A DNA stretch of 63,576 bases, counting the filler, from Collodictyon triciliatum (Eukaryota), in assembly GCA_043381765.1 (NCBI GenBank). It is 7 parts of 6 records of this genome, joined end to end, with 100 filler letters (N's around TTAATTAATTAA, not from the genome) between each part and the next. Parts side by side here need not be neighbours in the genome. Positions count along the whole stretch, not along the records: positions 59,905 to 63,576 come from JBHJMP010002166.1; 6 more parts are not named here. One strand, given 5' to 3'. The position numbers and the translations under genes were made by a program. Position 1 is the stretch's first letter. Every line of letters starts with the position of its first letter. Below the pieces are notes generated by a model. The model saw only the letters and a program-made list of their open reading frames with translations. It had not been told where the DNA came from and made no database searches. Positions 940 to 63,576 of the stretch are shown piece after piece.

Positions 940-3900
940 TCACATAGATAAAAGCTCATCCTCAATTTTTGAAAAGGAGGGCCTTTTCGCTGGATTTTCA
1001 TTCCAGCAGTCTTTGATCAATTTCGATAGCAAGGGATGAATGTCTGGTGGAATTGCTGGCCTGATTCCACTTATCACCTCCAGAGCTAGTTTATATGGGT
1101 CAATACTATCATATGGCTTCTTTCTAGAACAAACTTCCCAAGACAATATAGAGAAGCTGTAAACATCAGCAGATTCGTCATATCTTAGCCCTTTAAGAAC
1201 CTAATCATTTTTCTAATTAATTGCTGCGGTAAAAATCTTCTATTCTCATTACAGGCAAAGCATCTAAGAACTTCAACCTCTGGAGCAATCCAGGCTTTTG
1301 TTCCACACTTTGTCATCGTTTGGTTATTGACTTTTACTCTTGCTAAACCAAAATCCGCTATTTTTGTGACTATAGGATCATCGCTGAAGACCTGTAAAAT
1401 GATTAAGATCGGATTTAGATTTTTCATCTGTAATTTTTATGTTATAATGATTTTTCGTTTGCGGAGATAGTGTATAAAACTACCAGGACGTTGTCACTTT
1501 TCAAGTCTCTGTGGTAAACCGGCACCTCACGTGAATGCAAATAATGCATGGCGCTCGACACATTAAGAAGAATTTTTTTTTGCTTTTCGAAGTTCATTAT
1601 GTTCTAATGCCAAATATCAGTAGAAATTTTTAGAAACACGCGTCTAGGAAAACAGAGTTGAAATTTTATATTTTACAAATAAAAAACGTAAAATGTTTTA
1701 TCGCTTTGTTCTCTAGATACTTTGATAGGCTTCCAAATGGCGCATACTCAAGGACAATACAAAGGTTTGGCTGCTCCAGACATACGCCATAGAAATGGAT
1801 TATATTTTCATGCCGAAGGTCCCTAGAGACATGAACAGTTTAATGGTAAAGAAATCATACTCAACTTATGTATATTAAATTTAAGTGTCCTGGGTAAAAA
1901 TGTGGCACTGTTACTCTATATTTCTTACTTAATGGTCATGACTTCAGCCATCAAAGAGAAAAATTGCTTTTCTGGCATTTTTTGTCTTATGAATCTCTTC
2001 ACAGCAACTTGTTTATCCGCCACGCTTCCTAGATAAACAGTACCATAGGACCCAGTGCCTAGCTCTTTGGTAGTAATTTTGATATCTTCGAATTTTAATT
2101 GGAACGATTCCTACAGATAAATTAAGTGAGATTAATTTTTGTGCCTATCAAATTTCTTTGAAACTCAAAAAAGCCTGTCAATGCTATTGGTTCATTTGTG
2201 TCATTCTGTGAATTTGGGTTATCATATCTTGATGGATTTTAATTTTAAAAAGGCTTATGGTTCAATACATGTTCAGAGGTACTAGCATCCGATTCTTTAT
2301 AGTCGTTAGTAATTGAGGGTAATTGTTTTACATCCTCAGCAAAGTATTGAACCCTCTCACGTAAAAGCTCAGATGTGATCTATTTAAGGGTTATTTTCAA
2401 ACAGTCAGCGAAGTGTGTGATTTATCAATATAGTGTCTCAATTATTTTTAAAGATTTTAAATAGATGCTGGGTGTTCAACAGCGACGGACGGCAGATTTT
2501 TTTTTGTTTATTTTTATCGGTCTATTGATACCATTTAATAATAGGGAACAATTAAACCTCATATAAATGTTCCGGATGCTCCAGCCCTTTCATTTCATGA
2601 AATCCAAGGTCTCTTACGGTCACGTTGCCCAAAGTTTTCAATTCATTGAAGATTTCCTTTGATGGGTATGGATTTACGTATGGAGATGCAACGAATTATA
2701 GTATGCGGTGGACTTTTCCACCTGATGGGCGATTTTCACCTTTCCTTCAATTATAATTGACGTACATTATAAACATCCTCGCCAATAACAACTTGTCCAC
2801 CCTTTGGGAATGATCCTATTCTTGCGGCAGTGTTCACGACTGGTCCGTAGTAGTCCATTCTTCCAGTCACAGGGTCTTCTCTGCACAAAGGTGAGCCCGT
2901 ATGTATTCCCTATTGTTACACGTTTCCAATCAATAAGACACTATTTAAAGACCTAAAGCACTCAATACCAGTACACTGGAAAAATCATCTAAATGAATAA
3001 AAACTAATATTTCTCATTCCTTTTTTCAATTTTGTGCTATAAGATGGGAAAATGGATAAAAACATACCATTCTTACTCTTATTCCTCTAAATAGCAATCC
3101 TTTTGCATTTTTCACAACAGTTGTTGAGGCATGATTCAGGATATTTAACGGCCATTCTACCAATAGAAGCATTTCTTGAGCCTGTAGCGAAAATCTAACA
3201 GCATCCATAACTGATTTGAAGGCTATCATGAATGCATCTCCTTCGGTTTTTACCTCATAACCCTGGTTTTGTTAAAAAAAATTTTAATTGCTGGAGTTAT
3301 AGGAATAAGCCGATAATTAAACATTTTGCATGATTTTCTTACCTTGTTTATTCTAATAGCATCTCTCATCGTATCGTTATGCATATTTAAGACTTCAATC
3401 ATGTCATCGGGGAATTTTCCCCATAGGGAAGTTGAACTTTGTATATCTGTAAATATTAGAGCAATCTTTCCTGTTGGGGCCAATTCTTTAGGCTTCCCAC
3501 TCATTCTTGTATTAAATAATGAACCAGAGCTGAAAGAAGCAGACCCGGATTCCCTTTTCTTTAATGCTGAATGAGCTGTAATCTCACTAAATGTAGGTCT
3601 AGACTGTGGGTTTTGGTCCCAACAAATTTCCGCAAGAGATTTCAATTCAGGAAAGTTTCCGTACTCTGGTAGGAATGATGGTCTCAATATCCCTTCTTGA
3701 ACTCTGAATATCACTGATTCAGCCAGTTCACCCTAATTTTCGATAAGGTGTTTTTTTTTATAAAAAAAACATAAAAATATTTGAAAATTGAATCAAATCA
3801 TTATAATTAAAAAACCGGATATGGTTCCTGTCTGCTTATAGTTTCCCATATAATGACGCCAAAACTATAGACGTCAGATTTAATGGTATATTCTTCTCCT

Positions 3901-5244: not shown

Positions 5245-6890
5245 TAACAATAACAATAACAATAAAATACTAAAAAAAATATAATATTATTATTAATCAT
5301 TGTAAATTAAAACTCGATGAAATAAAGTGAATCTGATGGTCTCGTACACCATAACGCTGACTTCGGTTTCAAATTCTTTGATTATTTCTTTGGTAATATT
5401 CTTGGCCAGCAGCTTTTTTATAGCAACGTCGGTTCCTCTCCAAGTACCTCTGTATACCTTTAGTTTTGATCGATAAATTTCGTCAAAAACATGAAAAATC
5501 AATGAGTTTAATAGTTTACCACACAAAACAAATGAAATATGTTCTACTATTATTGAATGTATTGTATAGACTGAATAGAGTACTTCACCAAAACCGCCTG
5601 ATCCAAGCAATTTTCCATAAATCAATTCATCATGACCAATGATACCGTACAATTTTTTTCTGTTTCTTTGATTTTTTTCATTACATTCCTTCGGTAAATA
5701 TAAAAAAATGTTGCCATTATCAATATAATGCCCCCAGTAGATCCACCAATGACAGGAAAGTAAGAAAATTCACTTTTTTTCTTATCTATTTTGGAACATT
5801 AGTCGAAATGAATAATCTTTCTGTCCCAATTAAATGCTCAAATAATTTATACAATACTTGGATACCAATGAATTATCGTACCTTCTAGACACATTTCCTT
5901 TTTTCATTAATTTTAATTAATATGTAAATCTTATTCTCCTTGAAAATATTTTACACAGGTATTTGAATAAGTTTACCTTTTTTATTACATAGTCCTTTCT
6001 GCATGCGCATTCTTGTAATATGGCATCCATATACCCATTTTCTGGACATTCTGATATTTTTATATGCAAAAATATGTCGTTCGTTATGTTTATGATTCAA
6101 GTATATAAATGAAGACAAAAAATTCGCGCTATTACACATATACAAAAAGTTTTACAACCTTTAATTTAAAGCTCACTTGCATGAATGGCGGTAAACTCAT
6201 TACAATGAAGCATGGCTGGTCGGTTGTATTATTTTCATATTTAAAGCTCATAAATTCAATCTTAAATCCAGATTTTGATTGGTAGATTGTGGATCCATTT
6301 ACTGAATTTTCCGAAAAAAAATCGACAGCTTCTAGAGTTTGAATCGATCCGAAGAGAGGAGATACTTTAATCCTGCATCATAAATTGTGGCATTAACTAT
6401 TGTTGCTTTATATTGCATCATTTTAATACATCTAAACAATTAGTTTACTGTTATTCCTATAGAAAGAAAATTATTTGAATTTCACTTGTCTTTAGATCGT
6501 ATGCTCATCCTTAAAACTAGGTGAGTGGCATTTTGTAAAACCCAAGAGCAGTTTGAATTTTCAAAATAAAAAGCTTCTTTACTTCCATCATCCAGAAATG
6601 ATGTTGCAAATGAACTGCTCACAAATTGTGCATCAGGAGAGCAGAAACCTTATGAAAGTTTCGGTAAGTTTAAAGTTCTTCCTTCAGGCGGTGCCACATA
6701 GTTAACACATTAATTTATTTTCATTTGTACCTGGTCTGTAACCAACTATTTGATTAGTTGTCGAATATCCATTTGTGCCCCCAAAATTCACAAAAATACC
6801 ATTCATGAATGCACCTTCCTGGCCTATAATTGATTCGTATCCCTTGACTTCATTCTGTTTGTGAAGTTTCCCTTGTTTTCCGAATTCTAT
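940..6890 (-). CDS. Single-pass receptor: ectodomain (CUB-like/Cys-rich) - TM - TKL kinase - class III nucleotide cyclase - TKL kinase; spliced; 5' end beyond the N gap (further exon-like segments near 8450-8910)
   Basis: [24 protein letters not shown] (about 5695-5765). Kinase 1: [33 protein letters not shown]. Cyclase: [37 protein letters not shown]. Kinase 2: [46 protein letters not shown]. Stop at 940. Confidence 0.9.
5196..5243. repeat. (TAG)n microsatellite flanking an assembly gap
   Basis: Seen directly; lies in an intron of the kinase gene. Confidence 0.95.
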
Positions 6891-11612: not shown

Positions 11613-13045
11613 TTATTGGGTCAGCATCTTCTGTGCATCCACCATTTCCTTTTCTGAAAGCTTCGTATGAGGATGGTCTGCGCCATAGACACGCTCATAC
11701 ACCTTCTTGGCTTTTTGGTACATGTCCACAGCCTCTTGATATTTCTTCTGGTTCATGAGTAGGCTACCAATATTGTAGTATGAAGCGGCAACATTAGGGT
11801 GTGTCTCTCCAAACACCTTCAGCTTAATCTCCAATGATTTGTGATAGTATTCCAGAGCTTTCTCATGTCTGTCAAATAATAATTTAATGAAAGGATGAAC
11901 ATAAATACATGATCAAATAAAATATACTTTCCAAGTTTCCTATAGACGACCCCAATATTATTATATGAATTGGCAACATCAGGGTGGACTTCTCCATACA
12001 CTTTCAGTCGAATTCCCACTGATTTATGGTAGTATTCCAGAGCTTCGTCATACCTATTTAAATAGTACGTTAACGAAAGAATAAACATATATAAACAAAT
12101 AAAACATACTTTCCGAGGTCATCGTAAACGTTTCCGATTCCCATATATGACCCAGCAACATCAGGATGCACCTCTCCATATACTTTCAGTCGAATTTCCA
12201 ATGATTTGTGATAGTATTCCAGAGCTTCTTCATGTCTATTAAATAATAAGTTAATGAAATGATAAACATAAATATACAATAATAAAAGATACTTTCCAAG
12301 TTGACGATAAACAATTCCCATATTTCCATATGAGCCAGCAACATCAGGGTGTACTTCTCCAAACACTCTCAGTTTAATTTCCAATGATTTGTGATAGTAA
12401 TCCAGAGCTTTTTCATACCTGTTAAATAATAAGTTAATTAAGAATAAATATATACACATAGTCAAATAAATCATACTCTCCAAGTTGAAGATAAACATTT
12501 CCCAGAAAATTCAGATTTCTGCTATTCGAATCTATTAAAAATTAAAGAATTAGCAACACACCCTCATAAAATACAAATCAAATGACCAAACCCTCATCAA
12601 TCTCAACAGAAATGCGGTGCTCAAGAATCGGAATCAAAAAGGCATTCTCTTGAATTTGTTGAAAGTAATCAACCAACGCAGAGCCAGCAGAATTCAGTTG
12701 CTGTTGTACATATCCATTAAAATAAATTCAATATTGATACATATAATTGAGTTTTATCACCTTGGCCAACTCACGATAGACGACTTTGTGGTCATAACCG
12801 TTCTTATTCAGCACTCTCCAGCATTCATAAAACTCGAAGCGATAGTTGTCATCCAGCATACTCACAACAACCTAAAAACCACATTACAACATAGGTCACA
12901 GTAATAAAAATAAAATCCACAATTTAACCTTTTCACTCTTCATAAAGTCCACCAGTTTATCATATTCGCTCGAAATCCTCAGATTGTGGCATATTTCGGC
13001 AACAACACTCTTGTCTTCAGTGTTAGAGCTGTATTCACCCAGCAG
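11613..13045 (-). CDS. TPR-repeat protein (42-aa kinesin-light-chain/TPR_12-type repeats), spliced, 5'-truncated at the spacer
   Basis: Repeats of the type EEALEYYHKSLEIRLKVYGEVHPDVAGSYxxxGxVYxxLGK lie on 126-nt exons 12293-12418, 12110-12235 and 11928-12053. Terminal exon 11613-11868. Confidence 0.9.
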
Positions 13046-13145
13046 NNNNNNNNNNNNNNNNNNNNNNNNNNNNNNNNNNNNNNNNNNNNTTAATTAATTA
13101 ANNNNNNNNNNNNNNNNNNNNNNNNNNNNNNNNNNNNNNNNNNNN
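13046..13145. other. Artificial assembly spacer N44-TTAATTAATTAA-N44 (also at 26173-26272, 39274-39373, 52376-52475, 56556-56655, 59805-59904)
   Basis: Six identical 100-nt blocks whose 12-mer core has stops in all six frames. Genes are truncated at most of them. Confidence 0.97.
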
Positions 13146-16100
13146 AAAATACACACACCACCTTCCCCATCGCATGGAATACAGTCACTGAGCTTTAAAT
13201 TTACAGATTTTGACCCTGTTGGAAAGTGTGATTTAAAAGATCATTATTTCTGATTAATAACTATTCATGTTTTCATAAATCAAAATCTACAGTTAAATAT
13301 TTTACATGGTATTTACCGTAATATTCTAAGTCCTTAATCATTTTATTATTAGTGCTTCCTCCAAAAGACACTAGTTGTTTATTAAAGAAGAAAGCTCCTC
13401 CAAACGAACGAGAGTGATAACTCTCACTGACAGGAAAATGCATCCACTCATCTCTATCTATGTAATTAACAATAGCATCTCCTTTATATCATATTGTAGT
13501 TTGCATACATCGTAAAAATATAATAAATTTTTTTCAATTAAATGACATACCTGGTTTGTATATAAAAGAGTGCTTCAGAAGCACACCATTTTCCTAAAAA
13601 AAAAAATGATGGTCAATGTATATAATTTATGAAATAGGAGTTTGACTATTGGCTTCATTGATAATTTTACATTTTCACCCCCAATGATTATAATTTCTGT
13701 TCCATTCCTAATACACTGAGCTCCAATGATAATCATGGGAAATCTTCCTTTTTTTGTCCACGTTTTATCTTTTGGGTTGAAAAAGTAGATGTGATTATCA
13801 AAATGGCTTGTCCTTCCCCCAATCAGAACTCCGTATGAACCCATAGAGACTGCACAACTATGAACTCTTTTGGAAGGCACTTCCCCAAAAACCTTAGTCT
13901 TGTTCCACACAGATAACACTATGAAGGATTGCGTACCATTAAATGAGGTTTTCTGGAGAAAAATTAAAAAAATGTGGTTATATTAATGTACTCCTCTAGT
14001 CAAATAAGAGAATATATATTTTACCTGGGGAGTCTGTTTGAAACATATAATGCATGTCGTGATAGAAATCAGTTTCCTGAGGATTGGTTGATGTGCTTCC
14101 GGCCGTGAGGTAAATTTCAGCCCCGAAAACAAAAGAGCTCCCAAATACAAAAGGAGGAAGACCTGTACTGAGCTCCACAGATTCAGATTGATGTATATCT
14201 GCATCCACTATTGATAAATTAATTTTAGATAAAAATCAAAAGAAAAAAGAATCCACTAACATATATGTTTCTAACCTATGGCTTTCAAAACTCTCTTCTC
14301 TTGAGATTGAACGCATTTCATCTAAATTTATAGTTAATAATAATATTTGCACTTTATTTTACCGAACTCTTACAAAAAAAAAATTATTTTGATGAGGATA
14401 ATGCGTACTTGATTATCCTTTTCTTGCATATGATTTCCCAGGCACGGGACACATTCATTACGAAAGTTGATGTATTTCCCTGATGAACATACACACCCAC
14501 CAAGGTTGGCAGAAAAACCGAATGGACACTCTTTATTTGGAATTTTAAATTAACAGATGTATTTTCCCTACATTATATGATATCAATAAAATCTGTTTTG
14601 GGTGTCATCAAGATTGAAAATCACTGAAAAGTTTAATCGAGAATCCGTCGCTGGTGTCTGCATCTGCATCAACTTGGAAATTAAGGTAGAATAAATCCGA
14701 GTGAACCTCAATAGATTCTCCTGATTTCATTGATTGCAATGATACCTGAAATAATTCGTTAGGTCATACAAACTGACTTTTTATCATGATTCGTACACAC
14801 TTGACTTATAGTCCCGTTTCCCCTTCGAAAGCCACTGCCACACTTATCAACTGCATACAAGGTTAGAGAGGCACCTCCTACTATAGCCATATTCTCGACC
14901 TAAAATAAAGATTTATTATTTAATGGATATAATTCAAAATGACCATGAATTATATACTCACAACGATGAAGTTTGTGTTTGAAATAATCCAAGTGCAATT
15001 CGTCCCAGGAAAATAAAAGAATTCTCCGCTACCGTCAGTCAATGTTTTATTTGAGTTTGTAGCGTATGCGAGCCCATTACACCAGAGCTTGCCTATAAAA
15101 AAAATTCACAAGTTTTTCGTTATTTCTTAAAAAATGTGAATTTTTTAAACTTTCGAAATGTGTTTAATAGCGATATAATCAACAAAAATTCTTATGAAAC
15201 CTAAATCAAGGGCATATATTCCGTTAGTTTGTCCTTTGCTAAAGGTACTCCACTGAGTTAATCCTCCAAAAACCAAAGCCTTATCCAGATTTGTGGTCAT
15301 TGATGTATAAAATCTCCCGACGGCCGATTGATTTAGAGTCTTAATCTCTTTCCAAGTAGACTTTTCCACTGATTTAAATAATAAAAATTGTTGGTTAAAA
15401 TATGTTCTTAGCTCATTACACAAGGTTTGTTGATTATTCGATATGTACTATTTAGATTTTATTACCTGTTCCCATCCAGAGACTGTTGGACATAGTCGTC
15501 AGGATTCCACTAAAAGAAATGAAATTCGAACGGAACCCAATCAAACTTGAATCTACGATTGCATTGTCTATTGTGGAAACTTTTTTCCAACTATTTTGAC
15601 CTGATAAAGTTGAACATAAAAAATAATAGTATCAGTTAAATATTGGCTATTTTTTTAATGCATTCTAAATAAATTCTGTAAATAATGGTGCACTTGCTTA
15701 CTATACCTTCATCAAAGCACCATATCTCTCTCGTTCCACTTTGTGTATTCAGGTAAGAAATATGGAAAAAGCAAAACTTCCCATTTATTACGATGCCTTG
15801 CTGATTGCTCCGAGTAGATGGTGTATTTTTTGAGTTTGAGAATTCTCTTCCCACCGTGTTTTCCATATCCAAAACATAAACATGGGTCGTTCCATAGGTA
15901 GAATTTGTGAAAGTTCCTGACCATAGATACAGCTTGCTTCCTATGAAAGCGTTTGCCGTACCATTTAAACTTCCCGCTATCTGGTAAAATAGAGAACTGG
16001 CTTCAATGCGGTACCATTTATTTGTTTCTAGATAAAAATGGAATTAATAACCTTTAGACACAATTTCAGCATAATTCATATTTCCTTCGTTATAGATAAT

Positions 16101-26172: not shown

Positions 26173-26272
26173 NNNNNNNNNNNNNNNNNNNNNNNNNNNN
26201 NNNNNNNNNNNNNNNNTTAATTAATTAANNNNNNNNNNNNNNNNNNNNNNNNNNNNNNNNNNNNNNNNNNNN

Positions 26273-29163: not shown

Positions 29164-32100
29164 TACTTCGCAAACCTTCGTATCCTTGGCCTTCCAATAC
29201 GAAAGTTGAGGGTACACATGTCTCGAGTGTTGCAGAGAATTCATATCCAACGTCGCACTCACATGCGCCGTCGATGCAGTGTTGATGCGCGGGGCATATG
29301 ATATTCAGGCAACTGTCACATACTAAAATGAAATAAAAAAGGCCGACATGATTCTGAGTAAACGGCTAGAGTGATGAAGGAGTCTGCTTTCGAGTTTCCT
29401 TGCTTTTTTCTTCTTCTTTTTTTTTTTAAAAAAAAACCATGACTATCATAGTGGTAAATATAATCATCATAACAATTACATTTGATTGTTGCTGTTAGTT
29501 TGATTTCAGCTGTCGTGACGATATTCTGGTTCTGCACGCCCACGTAAACAAGCTTTGAAGAGCTGCTTCCACAATTATCCAGAACAACAGAGTAACTTTT
29601 CCCGGTAACAGCTTCATCGCAATTTCTGTCGCCTGGACACGAGCCTATGATAGTACACATAGATAGTCTGGCTTGCTCGTTTTCTTTTTCGAGAATCAGA
29701 TGCACTCCTCGGTTGGCCGGCAGCTCCGTCAAGTAATAGGACAAGCCTGGAGAAAGAGAGTCGTCCAAAGGAATCATACTGTACAGGACTTCAGCCGCGA
29801 CGGAGCATCCAAGAGTGCTCTATTTATTTTGGGCAACCATATCTTTAATATCTCTACGATGCATTTTTTTTGAAGAAAAAAAAAGGCATTTTTGGGAAAA
29901 CTAATAAGAAAGAAAATTGAAAGTGAAAAAAATATGAATGAATAAAAAGAAAAAGAAAAAAAGGGCTAAACACCAAACTAACCAACTTGGCATTTTAAAG
30001 TATTATTTTGCAAAAGAAAATGAATTTACAGTAGTGCAAGACACGATTCGGTGTTCCTCAGGCAAATCGTACTCGATGGACTCTAGATAAGCGGCTGTGC
30101 GATGCAAGTCTATTTGAGAGTCATCGATATAGGTCACAGGAGCTACGAGGATTGGGTGATGCAGCGCGCTATAACCCATGCTGTCATATGGAATTTGCGT
30201 CACCAAGTCTGTTCCCTTGTTCCCTGCGGTGACTACACGATGCGATGGAAGAGCGCGGGTATCCACACGGCTAGCTCTAAACCTAGATGGTGAGCTCCGG
30301 GAATTCATGCCCACCAGATTGTTGAAGAAATCGACAAAAGTTTGGTCACCAACGCGCGGGGACCCGATGCTGAGAATAGATATCTTTATCCACTTGTTTT
30401 TTATCGGGTCGGATGTAAGAAAGTCGGAGATGCAAAGAGTGGCCAAGGCACCACCGAGACTGTGGCCTACGAAGACATCGAAACCAGGAATGAAACCAGA
30501 GAAAAAGAAAGAAAAAGCAGACAATATCTAAAATTCCTCTGCAAAAACCTATTTGATGGTTGATAGAGAACGACAGTTGATACCTGTGATTACCAATTCA
30601 TACTCGTTGGATAGAGGATACGAGTCTAGATACGCTTTAATGAGTGGCTCCATAGACCGATACGCGGCGTGAAATCCTCTGTGTATTCTGCCACAGTTGA
30701 CACCATTAAAATTACAGTCGGTCTTTATGATGTCTGCATCCGTTTTCCAGTCTAGGACTGTATCTGTGCCTATATGAGTGAAAGAAAGAGAGAGAAAAGG
30801 GGATATTTAGACTAGAGGAATGTAACTATGTGTGCCCCTAAGATATGAGCGTGTGATGATTCGAGTCGTTTTTCTATATAAAGATATGCATGCTATTGGG
30901 TACATATAAAGTATCACCTTCGAATGACAGAACAACCCAGCCAATCTCGGGGTTCTGGTGAATGACAACTTTGAAATTATTGTCCTTCGGGTCTTTAATT
31001 TCCTTCATATATAACCACTCATAGCAGCCGTCAGCGAAAGGAAGAACATAGTTTTTGGCCACTTCGTTGTAGACTAGAGTAGAGAGCGTTGCCAGAACTC
31101 TTGCACGATTCATAACCTGATAACGAATTTAATTATATAATGCACGCACAGAACTGAAATTATGTACTTTTGATGTAATTTCTATTTAGTATTTTGTTGA
31201 TTCTTTAAGAAAAATCAGAAGAAAATTACACAAATATCAGAGTTCCTCAATCTATGAAAATCGAAACACAGTTATAACATTCGCAAATGAATGAATGAGC
31301 TACGCACAATATTGTTATTGCACTGCTCTACATTCGAGATGAAAGTGGCTTGCAGTTCGTATTTTGCGTCTGTGAAGTAATTTCCGTTCCAAACAGAGAA
31401 AAATAGCTTCGACCCTTGTTTTTCGTTGCAATTGTAAACCCCGAGCACATAAGGGGCAGACTTGTCCACAAGGTCATAGCTGCTAGCTGGTGGCTTGTTT
31501 TGGCGAACATAGAGCCCAACGTCGTCTTTGTCTCCTGGGTTACGCAGCTCTACCACAACGTAATCGCCCATTTTTAAATGGACCTCATAGTGTACATAAG
31601 AACGGGTCGGCGCAGTCCCAGTGGCAAATGGACTTTGAGGAGAGAGTGAGTTTGGAAGACATCCGTTTCTCGCATTGAGAGATGCAGAGTTGGAATGGAC
31701 AGCAATCTTCTCACTAGGACATTCAGAACAGTCTGGGTATATTATTTATTTATTTATTTATTATTATTATTGTTGTAATGAACACAATGCTTTATTATCA
31801 AACGAATATAAAGGCAAGGCTGCACAAAAAAGAAAAACGCAAGAATTTTTATATAGACTTGAGAATAATAATAATTATTTTTTTTAAAAAAAGGGCAACA
31901 TTCATGCTCGTAATGAAAAGTGAGAAACAGAGGAATAACAGTGTATCTTTTTGCCACAAAAAAAAAAAACATCCATAGACAAACCTGTTATTTTCACGCT
32001 CAGCTTGTAGTCAGCCTTGGAGAACCAATTATCATTCCAAATGCTTACGTAGTATATCTCTGGGATACTTGCGATACAATGAGATGCATGCAACTGAAGG

Positions 32101-32607: not shown

Positions 32608-33372
32608 CCCTGCTAGTATTTTTTTTTTATCAATCGTTTCAAGTTGTTAGTTTACTTTAACTTTGCTTATTTAACTTTTGTTTCTGGCCAGCGAGGCACA
32701 ATTGGGATTGAAAATCCCTTGGACTATTGAATGAAGAAAAAGAAGGAAAAGAAGAGAGAGAGAAAAAAGGAAGAGGAAAGGAAAAGAAGGAAAAGAAGAG
32801 ACAGAATAAAAAGGGACAACCACAGGCTTTGACCGAGTGTTTGGATCGGTTTGCACCCGACCGAGTTTCTGGCAAAATGATCGCCGCCTCTGATCTGTCT
32901 TTCGCGATCGCTGCCGAATCCGATCAACCGAATCCCACATTGTTATTTTTTGATCGGAAACGCAGCTCCGTTTTGGGTATGCGAGAGAAAATGGAAACTA
33001 ATTGATTTGAATCAGTGTCTATGTATAGCATTATCGTAATACAGAGAGAGTTGTCTAATATGTATTAGTGGAATTTACTGTACATATTTCATTTGATCCG
33101 CCTTTATGATTAGAATCCTATTGTTGATGAATGAATAGCTTACATATTGTGCAATTAATCTAGAGACACTGTTTTTGTAGATAATAAAGTCTCAATTCTG
33201 GACATACAGATAAATTGCATGCAAAACCCACTTTTCGCATTCAGTTTTTTCCCAACGGAGTCGCCTCGCTGATCCGAACCCCTTAGCGATCTGCTGTTGG
33301 CCTTTCGTTGCGTGACTGAGCCGCCAGAAGCGAGCAAAGCAAGGAATAAACGTCAGAGTGTCTACTGAGGCC

Positions 33373-33892
33373 TTCACTTTTTTCTCTCTTCTTATTTATC
33401 TTCCTCTTTTTCTTCCTCTTTCTCTTCTTTTTCTTCCTCCTTTTCTTCCTCCTTTTCTTCCTCCTTTTCTTCCTCCTTTTCTTCCTCCTTTTCTTCCTCC
33501 TTTTCTTCCTCCTTTTCTTCCTCCTTTTCTTTCTCTTTTTCTTCCTCTTTTTCTTCCTCCTTTTCTTCCTCTTTCTATTCCTCTTTTTCTCTTCATCCTT
33601 ATTTATCTTCCTCTTTTTCTTCCTCTTTTTCTTCCTCCTTTTTTAACTCTTTTTCTTCTTCTTTCTCTTCCTCTTTTTCTCTTCCTCTTTTTCTTCCTCT
33701 TTTTCTTCTTTCTCTTCCTCTCTTTCTCTTCCTTCTTATTTATCTTCCTCTTTTTCTTCCTCCTTTTCTTCCTTATTTATCTTCCTCTTTTTCTTCCTCT
33801 TTTTCTTCTTTCTCTTCCTCTTTTTCTCTTCCTTCTTTTCTTCCTCTTTTTCTTCCTCCTTTTCTTTTTCTTTTTCTCTTCCTCCTTTTCTT
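33373..33892 (+). repeat. About 520-nt nearly pure polypyrimidine tract built on (CTTCCTCCTTTT)-type units
   Basis: Seen directly. It ends just before a CAG acceptor (33902-33904) upstream of the coiled-coil gene ATG. Confidence 0.9.
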
Positions 33893-33954
33893 ACGCACTT
33901 GCAGATTCGTCGGTGCCTGTGCAGCCTTTTCGTAGCAGGAGCCCGTTGCGCCGA

Positions 33955-38213
<4,259 letters not shown>

Positions 38214-39208: not shown

Positions 39209-39558
39209 AAGGAAGAATATAAAAAACAAAAAAACAAAAAAACAAAAAAACAAAAAAACAAAAAAACAAAAAANNNNNNNNNNNNNNNNNNNNNNNNNNN
39301 NNNNNNNNNNNNNNNNNTTAATTAATTAANNNNNNNNNNNNNNNNNNNNNNNNNNNNNNNNNNNNNNNNNNNNAACCTCATCATGCAATACCCGCACAAG
39401 ATAGATTGTGACTAAGGCTGGATTAGCTCATCTCTTGGTTGTTGTATGGCTATAAAGAAGTGAAGAAGGGGACAACTTCTGAAAACTATTAGAGTGATTT
39501 GTTTGCAGTCTGGATGCATGAAATGCTCTGTACCGGGTTGTATTTTGTGATGCCTCTT

Positions 39559-40388: not shown

Positions 40389-40915
40389 ATCCAAGCCTTT
40401 TCTATGCGTTGTGAGGGTGTCATGTAGTATTATACATATATTGTCTTTTGTACTCCCTGCCCGATATTTGAGCGGGCGGAGCAATTCTGCGGATGAAAGT
40501 CTACCATTTCATTTGACAGTGGACTTTATCGATACCGGACTGACATAGAGTTCGTGTGAAAAGAGGGCTGCGCACCAGTCCGTTCTCTTTCATGAGGATG
40601 TTCTAGTCGAGACATATAATTAATGCTACTTATGATATTTTTTAATTCTGTTGTATGATTTTTAAGGCTTAATGCACCTTATTCGACAGAATTATTTATA
40701 TAATCCACAAATAGCATGATTACGAATGTGGGCTTCCAATGATCGACAAGCAACCCGACTAAAAACTTCCTCCGCTGGCTCGCTTGGGCACAAATCTCAC
40801 GAAAAAAAAGAGGGAATGCGCCATCCAATCAAAGTGCATAGAGCTTTTGCATGAATATCAAGCTGTACGAAAATGCATTCGGATTGTGCTGGAAAATGGA
40901 AAAAAAAAGTCAACC

Positions 40916-41178
40916 CTTTTCTCTCTTTTCTCTCTTTTCTCTCTTTTCTCTCTTTTCATTGTTTTCTCTCTTTTCTCTTTTTTTCTTTTCTCTCTTTTCT
41001 CTCTTTTCTTTTCTTTCTCTTTTCTCTCTTTTCTCTCTTTTCTCTCTTTTCTCTCTTTTCTCTCTTTTCTTTTTTTTTCTTTTCTCTCTTTTCTCTCTTT
41101 TCTCTCTTTTCTCTCTTTTCTCTCTTTTCTCTCTTTTCTTTCTTTTTCTTTTTTTCTCTTTTCTTTTCTTTTCTTTTT
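40916..41178 (+). repeat. (TTTTCTCTC)n pyrimidine minisatellite upstream of Pet127
   Basis: Seen directly. Confidence 0.95.
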
Positions 41179-41335
41179 GCATATGTTATTCCGCTTTCAT
41201 TTCCTTTGGCTGCAGACTAATTTTTTTTTTGAAACTCAATCAAATAATCTTATTCTTGCACTCTTCAGCGCCTCCTATTCCCCTTTCTTAACTTTCACTC
41301 TTCAAGACAGCTACTTCGCCTTTGGTCGTACGCTC

Positions 41336-45431
<4,096 letters not shown>

Positions 45432-52375: not shown

Positions 52376-52475
52376 NNNNNNNNNNNNNNNNNNNNNNNNN
52401 NNNNNNNNNNNNNNNNNNNTTAATTAATTAANNNNNNNNNNNNNNNNNNNNNNNNNNNNNNNNNNNNNNNNNNNN

Positions 52476-52552
<77 letters not shown>

Positions 52553-52770
52553 AAAAAAAGAAAAAAAAGAAAAAGAAAAAGAAAAAGAAAAAGAAAAAGA
52601 AAAAGAAAAAGAAAAAGAAAAAGAAAAAGAGAAAGAAAAAGAGAAAGAGAAAGAAGAAGAAGAAGAAGAAGAAGAAGAAGAAGAAGAAAAAGAAAAAGAA
52701 AAAGAAAAAGAAAAAGAAAAAGAAAAAGAAAAAGAAAAAGAAAAAGAAAAAGAAAAAAGAAAAAAAGAGA
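52476..52770. repeat. Poly(A) followed by a (AAAAAG)n/(AAG)n purine tract
   Basis: Seen directly; lies in a WDR78 intron at a segment end. Confidence 0.9.
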
Positions 52771-52796
52771 GGAAACTTGGAAGTATACATCTAATT

Positions 52797-54441
52797 ACCA
52801 GTGAATTCCAACCCCTTCTTGATTGACCATTGAGAAACCCGCCCATCCGTCGAGACCGACACAAGGGTTTCTCCCCGTTCATTGCTGCGGTCAATCCACT
52901 TGACCTCCCATATTGGATCCGCATGCTTTCCACTCGTAAGACTGCCGGCAAAGTTGGATAGATTATCAGAGGACTGGCCCACTTACACAAAAAGCCATTG
53001 ATGGATGAGAATTGATGACATATATATTTTGGTGAGGATGGGCGCAAACCCGCTCTCCAAGACAGGTCGGCTGTCGGTTCGACGCACGTCAAATATGGAT
53101 AATGCGCCGTCGTATGAACCGACTGCCAATAGATTCGGTTGGGTGAAGGAGAAGTCCACAGACGTCACTCCACTTGGTGTTCGTATTATACGCTCTGGAT
53201 ACTGCATTATCGATTGATTAATAGCGTCAATAACTATTCACGAAATGGGGAAAAGATAAAGATAAAGATAAAGATAAAGATAAAGATAAAGATAAAGATA
53301 AAGATAAAGATAAAGATAAAGATAAAGATAAAGATAAAGATAATTGTAATCAATAAAATTATTGTTGCAGATTTTTCAAAGAGGGAAGAAGTCTTTTTCA
53401 AGAAATCTTAAAATTTATATTGTACTATTTCTTTCATACTCTCTGAGAACCACATTTCCTGTATATAAAAAAATCATCTTTGGCTCACCACGGGATTCTT
53501 TAGAGACCAACACAGAATAAGGCCGCCTTCTTTTTCTTTTTGCTTGGTGAATTCATACTGGCCATATCCAACTGCAAGAACGTCCTATTCAGGTATGCAT
53601 TTCAATGGCAAGTCTCTAATAAGCAGTCCCGTTTATAGACTATTGCTGATATTCTTTAAAGAAGACCAACCTTATTTACACGATTCCAGGCCATACAGCT
53701 GACATTCCGTCCTTTCGTTAGATCGCAACTGAAGCTCCACAAGAATTCGAGGCTTGGCGACGGAGGTTGCTGATGGATGAGCTCTGATAAAAGAAAGAGC
53801 AAAAAGAAAGAAAAAAGAAAGAAAAAAGAAAGAAAAAAGAAAGAAAAAAGAAAGAAAAAAGAAAGAAAAAAGAAAGAAAAAAGAAAGAAAAAAGAAAGAA
53901 AAAAGAAAGAAAAAAGAGAATATATGGATGAGAAAATAATACAGGCCTCTTGGAGTATCCTCATCGAACAGAAGAAAACCTGACGCATCCATCCCACTGG
54001 AAGAGGAGCGAAGTAACTTCTCAACAAACAAATCTCTGTATATCAATTGTTTCGTATGATATATGTTTTGCGTGACCATCCGTTCACAAAGCCGCAAAGA
54101 ATCCGGAAGTCTTTTGAACTGAAGTATGAAGATGGGTTACTTTTCACTCATTCAGAGGATTTCAAATGCATGCAACGACCTTGTGTTTGTAGACAAATTA
54201 AAAGAGAAACTGAATGAGGTTCTGTAAAGTATACTTTGGTCAATGTAGAATCCTGCAGCGCTTTTGTATCTCCATTCTGACCCTCGCCTGTATGAGACCG
54301 GGAATTTTCGTTTGTGCCACGAGCAGTCCTTTGGGCGAGAAAGTCAGTATTCGAATTCAAATAATATCTGACATGATGTAAAATATAAAAAGCCTACAGG
54401 AAAAAAAAAAGATGAAAGGAATCATTCTTGCGTGGTGTAGA

Positions 54442-56422: not shown

Positions 56423-57309
56423 AGTATTCGAAAGGATGGGTAAGCATCAATTACATAAATAGCATCAGGGGAATATGAATGAACTTTTGCCACTTGATAT
56501 AACGAAAGAATGGGGAATACAGCTTGAATCAATACGTATAATGCCGCTAAAGAGGNNNNNNNNNNNNNNNNNNNNNNNNNNNNNNNNNNNNNNNNNNNNT
56601 TAATTAATTAANNNNNNNNNNNNNNNNNNNNNNNNNNNNNNNNNNNNNNNNNNNNTAAAAAAACCCAATAAAAAAACCCAATAAAAAAACCCAATAAAAA
56701 AACCCAATAAAAAAGAAACCGATAAAAAGAAACCAATAAGTAGACATGAAAAGCGCGCAACACGTGAGCCAACTGAAACCCTCGGTCAGCGTTTTCCTTC
56801 GCCTTTCGGCCTCTCCGTTTCGGCTGCGTCTGCGATCGTGGGTGATTTTCAGCGGTTGGGTTTGAATCAAAAACCAAATAAAAACATTGAAGATGACAAT
56901 CCAGATTAAGATGCCGTTATTCTATTTGTGGAATATACACAATAACACGAAAGTCCCGCCACCCACCCAGAACAGGCAGCTTCTTGAGATTAGATTATTT
57001 AGAGACATACAAGCATTACTGTTCTGCAGTTGGAATTAGCGGATTGATGTTAGCTTTGGTGGACATTTGAAATAGCACATCTGATGAGTGAGAAACGTCG
57101 TCGCGTGGCAAGTTGCTTTTTTTTTTTATTCGAGTATCGCTGCCACATTAATTCTGGATAGCCATTCTTTTTATCTTTTAAACGAGTGATGTTTGTGATT
57201 TGTCCATCGCTTCCCCGGGTTGGGTGTCTTTCAGGGCGACAAGGAATGATGCGAGGTTGGAAAACCGGAGGGTTTTGTTTTTTAAAAGGGCGGTTGGCAA
57301 ACATGACTC

Positions 57310-59631: not shown

Positions 59632-59969
59632 CTTTAAAATAGCATATCATCAGTCTGTAACTCTTAAATGTATCGCATATTGAATCTCAATGATCTCTTC
59701 CTCTTCCTCTTCCTCTTCTTTTTTTTTTTTTTTTTTTTCGTTTTTTAATTTTTTTTTATTTCTTTTTTTTTTTGTCGATATGTTGTATTTTAAGTTTTTT
59801 ATATNNNNNNNNNNNNNNNNNNNNNNNNNNNNNNNNNNNNNNNNNNNNTTAATTAATTAANNNNNNNNNNNNNNNNNNNNNNNNNNNNNNNNNNNNNNNN
59901 NNNNAAATTTTAATTATTTCTTCTCCTCCCGCTTTTTTTTTTTTTTTTTTTGTTAGGTTTTAAAAATTA

Positions 59970-60475: not shown

Positions 60476-61862
60476 TTTGCCGGTGCTGATTCAGAAACGT
60501 GAAAAGACCGGATCACATAGCTGATTGTAATTTTCTGCCTCGGTCTGTAAAGATAAGGCAAGTTCTCTGAAAACATATTTCCTTTTTCAGAGNNNNNNNN
60601 NNNNNNNNNNNNNNNNNNNNNNNNNNNNNNNNNNNNNNNNNNNNNNNNNNNNNNNNNNNNNNNNNNNNNNNNNNNNNNNNNNNNNNNNNNNNNNNNNNNN
60701 NNNNNNNNNNNNNNNNNNNNNNNNNNNNNNNNNNNNNNNNNNNNNNNNNNNNNNNNNNNNNNNNNNNNNNNNNNNNNNNNNNNNNNNNNNNNNNNNNNNN
60801 NNNNNNNNNNNNNNNNNNNNNNNNNNNNNNNNNNNNNNNNNNNNNNNNNNNNNNNNNNNNNNNNNNNNNNNNNNNNNNNNNNNNNNNNNNNNNNNNNNNN
60901 NNNNNNNNNNNNNNNNNNNNNNNNNNNNNNNNNNNNNNNNNNNNNNNNNNNNNNNNNNNNNNNNNNNNNNNNNNNNNNNNNNNNNNNNNNNNNNNNNNNN
61001 NNNNNNNNNNNNNNNNNNNNNNNNNNNNNNNNNNNNNNNNNNNNNNNNNNNNNNNNNNNNNNNNNNNNNNNNNNNNNNNNNNNNNNNNNNNNNNNNNNNN
61101 NNNNNNNNNNNNNNNNNNTGTTTTGTTTTGTTTTGTTTTGTTTTGTTTTGTTTTGTTTTGTTTTGTTTTCTATTCTTTTCTTTTCTTTTTATTCTTTCAT
61201 TCCTCTCGGTCTCATTCAGCTTATAAATGTATAAACTTCATTACAAAGGTTGTGACGAACTTGGTTTTATCCCATTCAAGCACAATAATTTTTATATAAC
61301 GAAAGTGTACCCATATAATCCAATCTATTGCACATACAACCATCGAATTAAATTTGGATTGACGAAAACAGGAGCTTTGATGAATCCAAGAAGCAACCTG
61401 AATAATATAATAGTATAATCAGTATATATAATAAGGTTAAAAAAACTTAATAATTGCATTTTATTCCTATAATTAATTTATATTTTATTTTCCGTCTATG
61501 TAATATTATCATTAAAATTCAAAAATGACAAACAAGCCCTTGCCTTGGCCCATACAGAACCCACCCTACAAACCTGCCACCAAACATGCATTCCAAAAAA
61601 GCATACTATCCACACTTGCGGTGGTAATCATGTTGTTTGAGGCCGATATGTTGACTTTCAGTCGCAATTGATATACGGCCGTCCTTTCCAACTCGCCGAA
61701 TCGGCTATCAGGGTTTTGTCTCAAATCACTTAAAAAAAAACCTGGCGAGTATGTTTGCCACAATGCGCACATTTTGAGGGTCTCGGTAGATGCTTAATTT
61801 TACCTGAATTGATTTTATGCTGTCTTTTTATTTTAAATTATCAAATTGACTAAAGTTTTATT

Positions 61863-61886
61863 AAAATTGAAAACTCGGTAGTTTTC
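61863..61886 (+). promoter_or_regulatory. AAAATTGA motif overlapping a 7-bp hairpin (GAAAACT-CGGT-AGTTTTC) upstream of the Fanzor ATG
   Basis: AAAATTGA at 61863-61870 equals the Mimivirus early-promoter octamer and ends 46 nt before the ATG. The octamer also occurs elsewhere in this AT-rich window. Confidence 0.3.
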
Positions 61887-61916
61887 TAAACAAAAAAGTA
61901 GAACAAAGACTTTCAC

Positions 61917-63576
61917 ATGAAGAAAAGAAAACGTCTTGAGTCTGAGAATCTAAAGTCTGTAAAAACAGACCATCGAAGTATGAAAACATATCTAAAGTCG
62001 ATTGTAAAGAATTCGGATGGCTATGACATAATCAGCGATACGGTTTTATTGTGTCATAATTTGGTCACCGACACTTATCTGTATGTAAGATGTTACATAT
62101 TGAAATCACAACAACTCCCAACAATCGATGAAATGTGTTTTTTGTACGCTTTAGAGACAGTCGGAAAAGTTTCACAAGATATACCCGCATGATTTAAAAA
62201 ACCAGATATGAGATTTGACTGATGACTTTTTATCTCTATGATTTTCGATTCCTTTTATCCCGATAAGAACGCATTCCGTTGGTTGGACTGTCCCATATAT
62301 TACCGTACTTGGCGAAGCAAATCTTCACAGCTTATCATAATAACATTAAGGAATATTTTGTAAAGAGGTTACTGCGCTTTATAAATAAAAGTTCCTAAAG
62401 ATGAGAATATTACGGAAGCTATTAAAAAGGCAGAGTTACGAAAGTTAAAAAAAAGGCCATCTTCAAGAATCTCGAAATACCGGAACAATATAAAGAGTAG
62501 GCTACAACGCACTTGGATTATATCATTCCCAGCGATATTGTAAAAAGTTATCGAATATGACGTCAAAGTCAATCCAAATAAGTACATTCCATGTCTTATT
62601 TACATGAATCACATTTTTGAGGACATTGACGCAAACAGTACTAACCAATCCCTAAAAGAACCACCAATATACCATGTCATATTACTCTAGATACTGTATG
62701 TTTGATAGATATATTAGTATTATCTAGAAAAACATCATTACTGAATAATATATCAGGTGAAAAAAAGACACTATGGCATAAGTTCTTTGAAACGAAGAAG
62801 AGGGCCTTTCATCAATGAGACTACAATTTTAAATACATGATACAAACAGATGGCTTGGTGGTGTCATTATTGTTCGAAAAGAAAGGCATTTCAAATTCAA
62901 GATTCCAATATAATCAAAAAAACCCAATAATGTTTATATATAGATGAACTTTCCGAAGAGCAGTTATCTTTATTAGCGACAAAAAAAAATATAGTTGGAG
63001 TGGACGCGGGCAAGTTTAATATGGTTTACATGGTGGATGAGAGAGGCAAGAAATTACGTTACACGGCTCACCAAACAAGACATGATAGCAAATCTCTTAA
63101 AAATCACAAAATACTCTCTCGCGAGAAAAAAAGAAAAGTACAATGCTTTAGGGATATACATGGCAACAGATTTACAAAGCGTTGTTTCTTTTGGTCTCAT
63201 GACTTTTGAAGAGAATCAGCGGTTTGAGACATCAAGAGTATCTTTAATCGATTTAGATACAGAACTGACTAAATATAATTCATGCGCGGTCGATTATGAA
63301 TAATTTCGGAAATAAGTATCTATGAAATCAAGATGCCAGATAGAATTTTCCAGATTTTATGAACACGTGACTTTTCGAAAAATGAGACGGATACAGTATA
63401 TTAATACAAAAAGAAGTGAACAATTGTTTATGGACTGAATCGAAAAGCCATTTTGGCAAGGATGTTGTACTGACGTATGGAGACTGGAGCAGAAAATCTC
63501 CGATGAAACGTCTTATAGCAACAATCGGAAGAGGATTACGAAAAATAGTACCCAAACGTTTTGAAACAGTTAGTGT
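61917..63576 (+). pseudogene. Decayed Fanzor1-type (TnpB-derived) RNA-guided nuclease gene; runs off the window end
   Basis: Reconstructed across frameshifts: KTYLKSIVK, TYLYVRCYIL..LPTID, NNIKEYFVKRLLRFIN, YDVKVNPNKY..LIYMN, IPCHITLDT, YMIQTDGLVVSLLF, RuvC-I IVGVDAGK (D at 63003), LRYT..Q, FY..FRKMR..YINTKRSE, YGDWS..MK..GRGLRK..KRF. About 8 in-frame stops and about 7 frameshifts. Confidence 0.88.

Follow-up and report, generated by a model that had tools for sequence, protein, structure and literature searches.

A broken and most probably non-functional Fanzor1 gene copy from a repeated element family of Collodictyon triciliatum

Introduction

How should a stretch of eukaryotic DNA be read that contains no single open reading frame and nevertheless resembles one protein from its start codon onwards: as a working gene that is hidden by errors or by unusual decoding, as the relic of an integrated virus, or as a dead copy of a mobile element? 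This question is raised by positions 61917-63576 of the window, i.e., the whole stretch of 63,576 nucleotides (filler included) from Collodictyon triciliatum that was analysed. Reading this region on the plus strand as a Fanzor1 protein needs three frames, and the list of open reading frames (ORFs) gives fragments alone, the longest single-frame piece of which (62931-63209) comprises 92 amino acids. Fanzor1 proteins, which are related to TnpB and are encoded in mobile elements of eukaryotes and giant viruses, cut DNA under the guidance of an RNA. Fanzor1 genes have been catalogued across eukaryotes and giant viruses, and many of them are multi-copy with up to 122 copies per genome, as described in PMC10530073 and PMC10432273. 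An initial annotation had proposed the region to be a dead Fanzor1 copy of a possibly undescribed family, with intact siblings possible elsewhere. Here we describe the extent, the identity and the decay of this copy, weigh the alternative readings and compare it with known systems.

Extent of the gene copy and assignment to Fanzor1

Among 1.84 billion representative proteins the 92-amino-acid fragment has 92 matches with E≤1e-3, six with E≤1e-10 and none with E≤1e-30, the best E-value being 1.9e-22. Taken by itself, the fragment shows weak similarity to Pfam OrfB_IS605 (E 0.034, below the cutoff) and to the Fanzor1 protein SpuFz1 (E 0.16). Pfam searches with eight fragments of the window likewise gave only sub-threshold matches, two of which were unrelated chance matches. 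With the closest fragment, P0001, as the starting point, a word-indexed search led to P0109, a protein of 648 amino acids on an environmental contig of 2,610 bases, which is an intact sibling of the copy. In a frame-aware alignment, residues 1-552 of the 648 residues of P0109 match positions 61917-63574 with 325 of 541 positions identical (60.1%), and tblastn of P0109 on the region gives five collinear segments (E 1.7e-117). P0008, which belongs to the giant-virus clade of relatives, aligns with residues 1-527 of 634 (213 of 509 identical, 41.8%), and the full-length matches in general (620-760 amino acids) fall on the window by tblastn as collinear segments that change frames from 61917 to 63574. 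No second copy was found inside the window. The gene copy and its recognisable parts, all supported by these alignments, are as follows:

61917..63576, + strand: Fanzor1 pseudogene, codons 1-552 of about 648, interrupted by the window end
61917..61934, + strand: start codon and basic cluster MKKRKR, common to the copy and P0109
62846..62854, + strand: TDG motif of the WED domain, within QTDGLVVS, T at 62846 (also in the translation)
63003..63011, + strand: RuvC-I catalytic Asp within VGVDAGK, reading D-A-G, D at 63003
63140..63300, + strand: stretch following RuvC-I up to the next conserved helix
63479..63574, + strand: block GDWS...GLRK...RFETVS just before RuvC-II, G of GDWS at 63479

The series of motifs on which the initial annotation was built is fully present in the three-frame translation, at the coordinates and in the order that had been claimed, including NNIKEYF..RL in ORF 62267-62398, YDVKVNP with its Y at 62556 and FRK..YINTKRSE in ORF 63316-63438. 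Judged by the alignments, this collinearity is far beyond chance. The cluster MKKRKR resembles a nuclear localisation signal and may have served as one; such signals, usually N-terminal, are predicted in about 60% of Fanzors (PMC10530073).

The assignment to Fanzor1, which had also been proposed, is borne out by searches against the PDB. The frame-2 read-through of the window (62222-62935, stops written as X) has only three matches with E≤1, all of which are Fanzor1 proteins, namely those of Parasitella (3e-6), Guillardia (4e-5) and Spizellomyces (6e-4). P0109 finds the same three with 2e-28, 3e-24 and 4e-23 as its sole matches with E≤0.01, and P0008 finds SpuFz1 (9e-37, residues 14-607), Parasitella Fz1 (7e-34) and Guillardia Fz1 (7e-16) as its sole matches with E≤1. 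The PDB searches with P0008, P0109 and the window read-through returned no chain of TnpB, Fanzor2 or Cas12 at the thresholds used.

Catalytic and hallmark motifs

The TDG motif in the WED domain is described as characteristic of Fanzor1 (PMC10711439), and 44 of 50 full-length relatives contain it. Further marks of Fanzors are a near-exclusive DPG at RuvC-I and a Glu six residues ahead of the zinc finger (PMC10711439). At RuvC-I the window reads DAG. The residues aligned to it are DPG in P0109 and P0008 and, via P0008, D383-P-N385 in SpuFz1, the active site of which consists of D383, N385, E541 and D606 (PMC10432273); these SpuFz1 residues map onto aligned positions of P0008. DAG also occurs in the environmental fragments P0002 and P0003 of the same subfamily, and DPG occurs in P0109, P0001 and P0005. 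The stretch 63140..63300 is common to the window, P0109, P0078, P0003 and P0005; compared with the giant-virus clade, this subfamily has it in a longer form.

Beyond the common 'RFETVS' P0109 continues with 'VNEFRTSKLCCNC...CLIC...TRDFN', i.e., Glu, zinc finger and RuvC-III: E555 is followed after six residues by CxxC, the zinc-finger pairs read CCNC and CLIC, and RDFN follows at residue 603. The Glu of P0109 aligns with E541 of SpuFz1 within the aligned 'DEYKTS'. From this continuation it follows that the RuvC-II Glu of the window copy would be located three codons beyond the end of the window. RuvC-II Glu, zinc finger and RuvC-III are thus predicted from the siblings to lie past position 63576, in agreement with the initial annotation, and so would any guide RNA at the 3' end. 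The window end would cut the gene about 96 codons ahead of its stop. With relaxed spacing, the order D[PA]G...E-x6-CxxC...CxxC...D is found in 38 of 50 full-length relatives, while the published strict-spacing pattern, which was built for TnpB-sized proteins, fits none of the 50.

Going by what has been described for the solved Fanzor1 proteins, the ancestor of the copy would have bound a guide RNA transcribed from the 3' end of the element and would have cut double-stranded DNA beside a short target-adjacent motif, its RuvC site probably consisting of the Asp of RuvC-I, the Glu six residues before the zinc finger and the Asp of RuvC-III.

Stops and frameshifts in the window copy

Compared with P0109 in the frame-aware alignment, the copy carries at least eight in-frame stops and at least six frameshifts, and a single open reading frame is absent. 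All positions refer to the plus strand and to the alignment with P0109:

62190, + strand: in-frame stop TGA
62264, + strand: in-frame stop TAA
62498, + strand: in-frame stop TAG
62642, + strand: in-frame stop TAA
62816, + strand: in-frame stop TGA
63301, + strand: in-frame stop TAA
63313, + strand: in-frame stop TAA
63436, + strand: in-frame stop TGA
near 62220, 62549, 62631, 62936, 63138 and 63454, + strand: frameshifts

The eight stops are those that had been annotated before, and all of them were recovered both in the translation and in the alignment; the frameshifts come in addition. Between 62396 and 62454 the alignment is ambiguous and allows either three further stops or two further frameshifts. 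TAA, TAG and TGA are all present inside well-aligned blocks, and the frameshifts go along without any intron-sized insertion relative to P0109.

A repeated element with many diverged siblings

To place the copy among its relatives, contigs of four public runs were aligned to 61200-63576 at a likeness of at least 80%. The number of pieces and their likeness to the window were as follows:

Run X4 (coded organism name): 434 pieces; ≥99%, 20; 95-99%, 103; 90-95%, 162; <90%, 149
Run X2 (freshwater metagenome): 155 pieces; ≥99%, 7; 95-99%, 14; 90-95%, 56; <90%, 78
Run X3 (freshwater metagenome): 67 pieces; ≥99%, 2; 95-99%, 1; 90-95%, 13; <90%, 51
Run X1 (freshwater metagenome): 1 piece; ≥99%, 1; none in the other classes

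The share of the sampled words of the stretch was 9% at most in each run. The pieces of X2 and X4 cover all 30 bins and extend over the 717 bases ahead of the ATG; in X4, deletion-type joints skip 68-882 bases. The repeated unit thus has a further part:

61200..61916, + strand: non-coding upstream part of the repeated unit, covered by sibling pieces that also bridge the start codon

Examples of pieces from the start region are 61540-61915 and 61674-62024 in X4 and 61521-61922 in X2. Among the rows listed, every sibling piece spanning 62190 departs from the window at this position, as do most of those spanning 62264 at the latter, and part of the pieces show insertions or deletions close to the frameshift places 62549, 62631, 63138 and 63454. 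Since the sibling pieces differ at these lesions, several lesions appear to be private to the window copy, and the family overall is less decayed. The earlier expectation of intact siblings was therefore justified, as there is P0109 itself and, moreover, many sibling contig pieces without some of the lesions of the window.

The ends of the element were not found, because the right end lies outside the window and the left end lies at or beyond an N run (60593-61118) upstream of the repeat unit. A (GTTTT)n run is located directly upstream of the unit (61119-61190). Within 61119-63576 only short and weak pairs of repeats were detected, with no meaningful inverted repeat, and neither terminal repeats nor a target duplication could be defined. 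Searching for a partner transposase in the window by tblastn, using the DDE_3 transposase of a viral relative and the small ORF upstream of that relative, yielded nothing, and Pfam gave no match for ten upstream ORFs. The sequence AAAATTGA at 61863, 54 bases before the ATG, was considered as a Mimivirus-type early promoter and rejected as a chance occurrence, since it occurs 13 times in the window versus 15.6 times expected and five viral relatives lack it in their upstream sequence.

Dead copy, faulty assembly or unusual decoding

Could the gene be intact in the organism, with the breaks being errors of assembly or sequencing? The source is a gapped draft, interrupted by 18 N runs, the frameshift places 62454, 62549, 62936, 63138 and 63454 lie in or beside homopolymers or TA runs, and at four of the frameshift places, or close to them, one or a few bases distinguish many sibling pieces from the window. 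As some of the frameshifts fall into homopolymers, single insertions or deletions could indeed be sequencing errors. However, the at least eight substitution-type stops, which comprise all three codons and lie inside aligned blocks, cannot, by the evidence of the alignment, be explained in this way, and the protein divergence of 40% between the window and its closest intact sibling also argues against an intact gene. Contig pieces of 210 and 233 bases that are free of differences cover the upstream part only and are uninformative on the breaks. Errors as the cause of all breaks are therefore very unlikely. Another explanation is that a functional gene is read via a variant genetic code, programmed frameshifts or unusual short introns, and introns do occur in the Fanzor genes of some eukaryotes (PMC10530073). 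Against this, TAA, TAG and TGA are all used as interruptions and no extra sequence is present at the frameshifts relative to P0109, so that neither recoding nor splicing accounts for the breaks; moreover, several of the lesions are missing from sibling pieces, and the standard code keeps the other coding regions of the window open. This reading is close to refuted. Taken together, we assign a probability of roughly 0.9 to the region being a decayed, non-functional Fanzor1 gene copy within a multi-copy mobile-element family of a eukaryotic genome, in line with the dead copy of the initial annotation. Such a copy would be capable of neither guide-RNA binding nor DNA cutting and would evolve as neutral DNA.

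Giant-virus relatives and the origin of the family

The nearest full-length relatives outside the subfamily of the window are found in giant viruses. P0109 is 44-46% identical to the giant-virus clade, and among the 120 matches listed of 227 (E≤1e-60, 356-1134 amino acids) none exceeds 46% identity apart from P0109 itself. All listed matches carry PF26935 (DUF8286), a label that was taken from precomputed annotations, and one of them is named 'Transposase, viral metagenome'. IMG/VR contigs of giant viruses, up to 254 kb in length, carry ORFs that are 80-88% identical to P0008, and on two of these contigs (L001, L005) the neighbours encode a ribonucleotide reductase small chain, a MutS domain V protein and a DEAD helicase. 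The atlas clusters nearest to P0008 are 92-100% viral, mostly Nucleocytoviricota. On L001 the viral Fanzor1 gene is preceded, at a distance of 320 bases, by a DDE_3/HTH_28 transposase gene (1638-2678, - strand), and on both contigs a small basic ORF with no Pfam match ends just before the Fanzor start (L001, about 2790-2950, + strand; L005, 2561-2941, + strand). The Fanzor proteins of L001 and L005 are only about 49% identical despite this common small upstream ORF.

The subfamily of the window itself is sparsely represented. Scans of IMG/VR with the 92-amino-acid fragment, P0001 and P0109 returned no close relative, a scan of GTDB genomes with P0109 found none, and a scan of JGI metagenomes gave 39 loci, all of which are 28-40% identical to P0078 and do not include the subfamily of the window.

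The surroundings within the window are of a different kind. The window is a eukaryotic draft with a GC content near 36%, and four of ten host ORFs tested have Pfam matches, namely to guanylate cyclase, TPR_12, Kelch and Lipase_3. The host ORFs, which include a guanylate cyclase exon, TPR_12 repeats, Kelch repeats and a class 3 lipase, are all on the minus strand and split by introns:

3250-3732, - strand: host ORF
5293-5769, - strand: host ORF
12070-12510, - strand: host ORF
13575-16043, - strand: host ORF
30003-30527, - strand: host ORF

The guanylate cyclase exon adjoins an ORF that is kinase-like by eye (no Pfam match), and an atlas search with the host exon gave generic guanylate cyclase clusters only. 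Long microsatellite or low-complexity runs are located beside several N gaps (33316-34983, 40763-41689, 52420-53164, 61119-61190). Six pairs of 44 N with 12 bases between them (13046-13145, 26173-26272, 39274-39373, 52376-52475, 56556-56655, 59805-59904), the first four of which are spaced by about 13.1 kb, look like a masking or scaffolding artefact rather than ordinary gaps.

These findings bear on the possibility that the locus is the relic of an integrated giant virus, i.e., an endogenous viral element in which the Fanzor1 gene arrived within viral DNA. The grouping of the nearest full-length relatives with ORFs of giant-virus contigs, the neighbours on these contigs, the viral share of the atlas clusters nearest to P0008, the 'viral metagenome' name of one relative and the fact that the gene is without introns would all fit such an origin. 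However, the number of diverged pieces, in the hundreds, and their internal deletions indicate a repeat that was amplified and dispersed and not a single viral insert, nothing virus-like is present among the 10 ORFs in the upstream 7 kb, the coding regions elsewhere in the window are split and of cellular type, and neither P0109 nor P0001 has a close relative in IMG/VR. A viral insert at this locus is thus improbable, and the decayed copy of a mobile-element family is preferred. A broader proposal is that the window belongs to an uncharacterised side branch of Fanzor1, in which P0109 alone, out of 5.8 billion clusters searched, is an intact relative of more than 46% identity, some members carry DAG and the stretch after RuvC-I is longer, and that this branch was maybe transferred between giant viruses and a eukaryote, was amplified there to hundreds of copies and possibly has active members with an own guide RNA. 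We consider this proposal as a whole tentative and rather doubtful. Published Fanzor survey tables may already include the copies of this organism. The suggestion that the family might be undescribed did not hold, as the relatives carry PF26935, occur in large number on contigs of giant viruses and can be aligned to Fanzor1 proteins of solved structure.

A candidate guide RNA at the 3' end of the relatives

In Fanzor2 and TnpB the guide RNA comes from the right end of the element (PMC3627910, PMC10711439). The corresponding region of the giant-virus clade was analysed with 44 fetched loci, of which 29 had an intact ORF of at least 600 amino acids and enough flank, giving 22 distinct 3' flanks. 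In 21 of the 22 a conserved block ends at A[AG]GGTGTA[AG], 45-92 nucleotides after the stop codon. The block is about 145 nucleotides long and starts approximately 60 nucleotides before the stop codon, thus overlapping the ORF end; beyond A[AG]GGTGTA[AG] the flanks of the relatives are unrelated. The alignment of the 3' sequences shows two clear hairpins with compensatory changes. RNAalifold, applied to 20 of the 21 flanks (L027 was omitted, being identical to L026 there), predicted 13 pairs, of which four covary, and the energy of -4.98 kcal/mol is weak. Across L001-L037 the block with the covarying hairpins ends at the almost invariant AAGGTGTAA. We regard the block as a candidate for the guide-RNA scaffold and for the right end of the viral Fanzor1 clade. 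Its anatomy is as expected of a right-end guide RNA, and it pertains to relatives that are 42-46% identical in protein. With up to three mismatches allowed, the viral 3' end motif does not occur in the window.

Significance and comparison with known systems

On its own, a dead and truncated copy matters little, being one more in a catalogued family. A host genome in which a Fanzor1 family with giant-virus genes as its nearest relatives has been amplified, however, is a usable case for the traffic of RNA-guided nucleases from virus to host, and the natural intact sibling together with the DAG variant could be of interest to those who screen Fanzors for genome editing.

Typical TnpB proteins are shorter than this protein by about 200 amino acids. 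In the comparison with TnpB, the Pfam signals were weak (OrfB_IS605, Cas12f1-like_TNB). Fanzor2 and the prokaryotic TnpB (OrfB of IS605/IS607) have the RuvC fold with zinc finger in common with the family of the copy (PMC3627910, PMC10711439), whereas the TDG motif, which is present in the window, is a mark of Fanzor1. The solved Fanzor1 proteins of Spizellomyces (SpuFz1, PDB 8GKH), Parasitella parasitica (9CF0) and Guillardia theta (9CER) are homologous to the siblings of the copy from end to end, with REC, WED and RuvC, and the WED/REC stretch of the window is directly homologous to them; the relationship is distant and is expressed as E-values. The window copy differs from the solved proteins in being broken and truncated and in having DAG for DPG, and its subfamily differs by the longer stretch after RuvC-I; neither inverted repeats nor a guide RNA were seen within the window. 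Closest outside the subfamily is the giant-virus Fanzor1-like 'transposase' family with PF26935 (P0008 and the ORFs of L001-L005), which has the same length (about 620-650 amino acids) and the same order of motifs. The members of this family are intact and have the conserved 3' block, whereas the window copy is broken and lies among cellular-type genes. The copy is thus a new, broken member of the known Fanzor1 kind, on a thinly sampled side branch beside the Fanzor1 genes of giant viruses.
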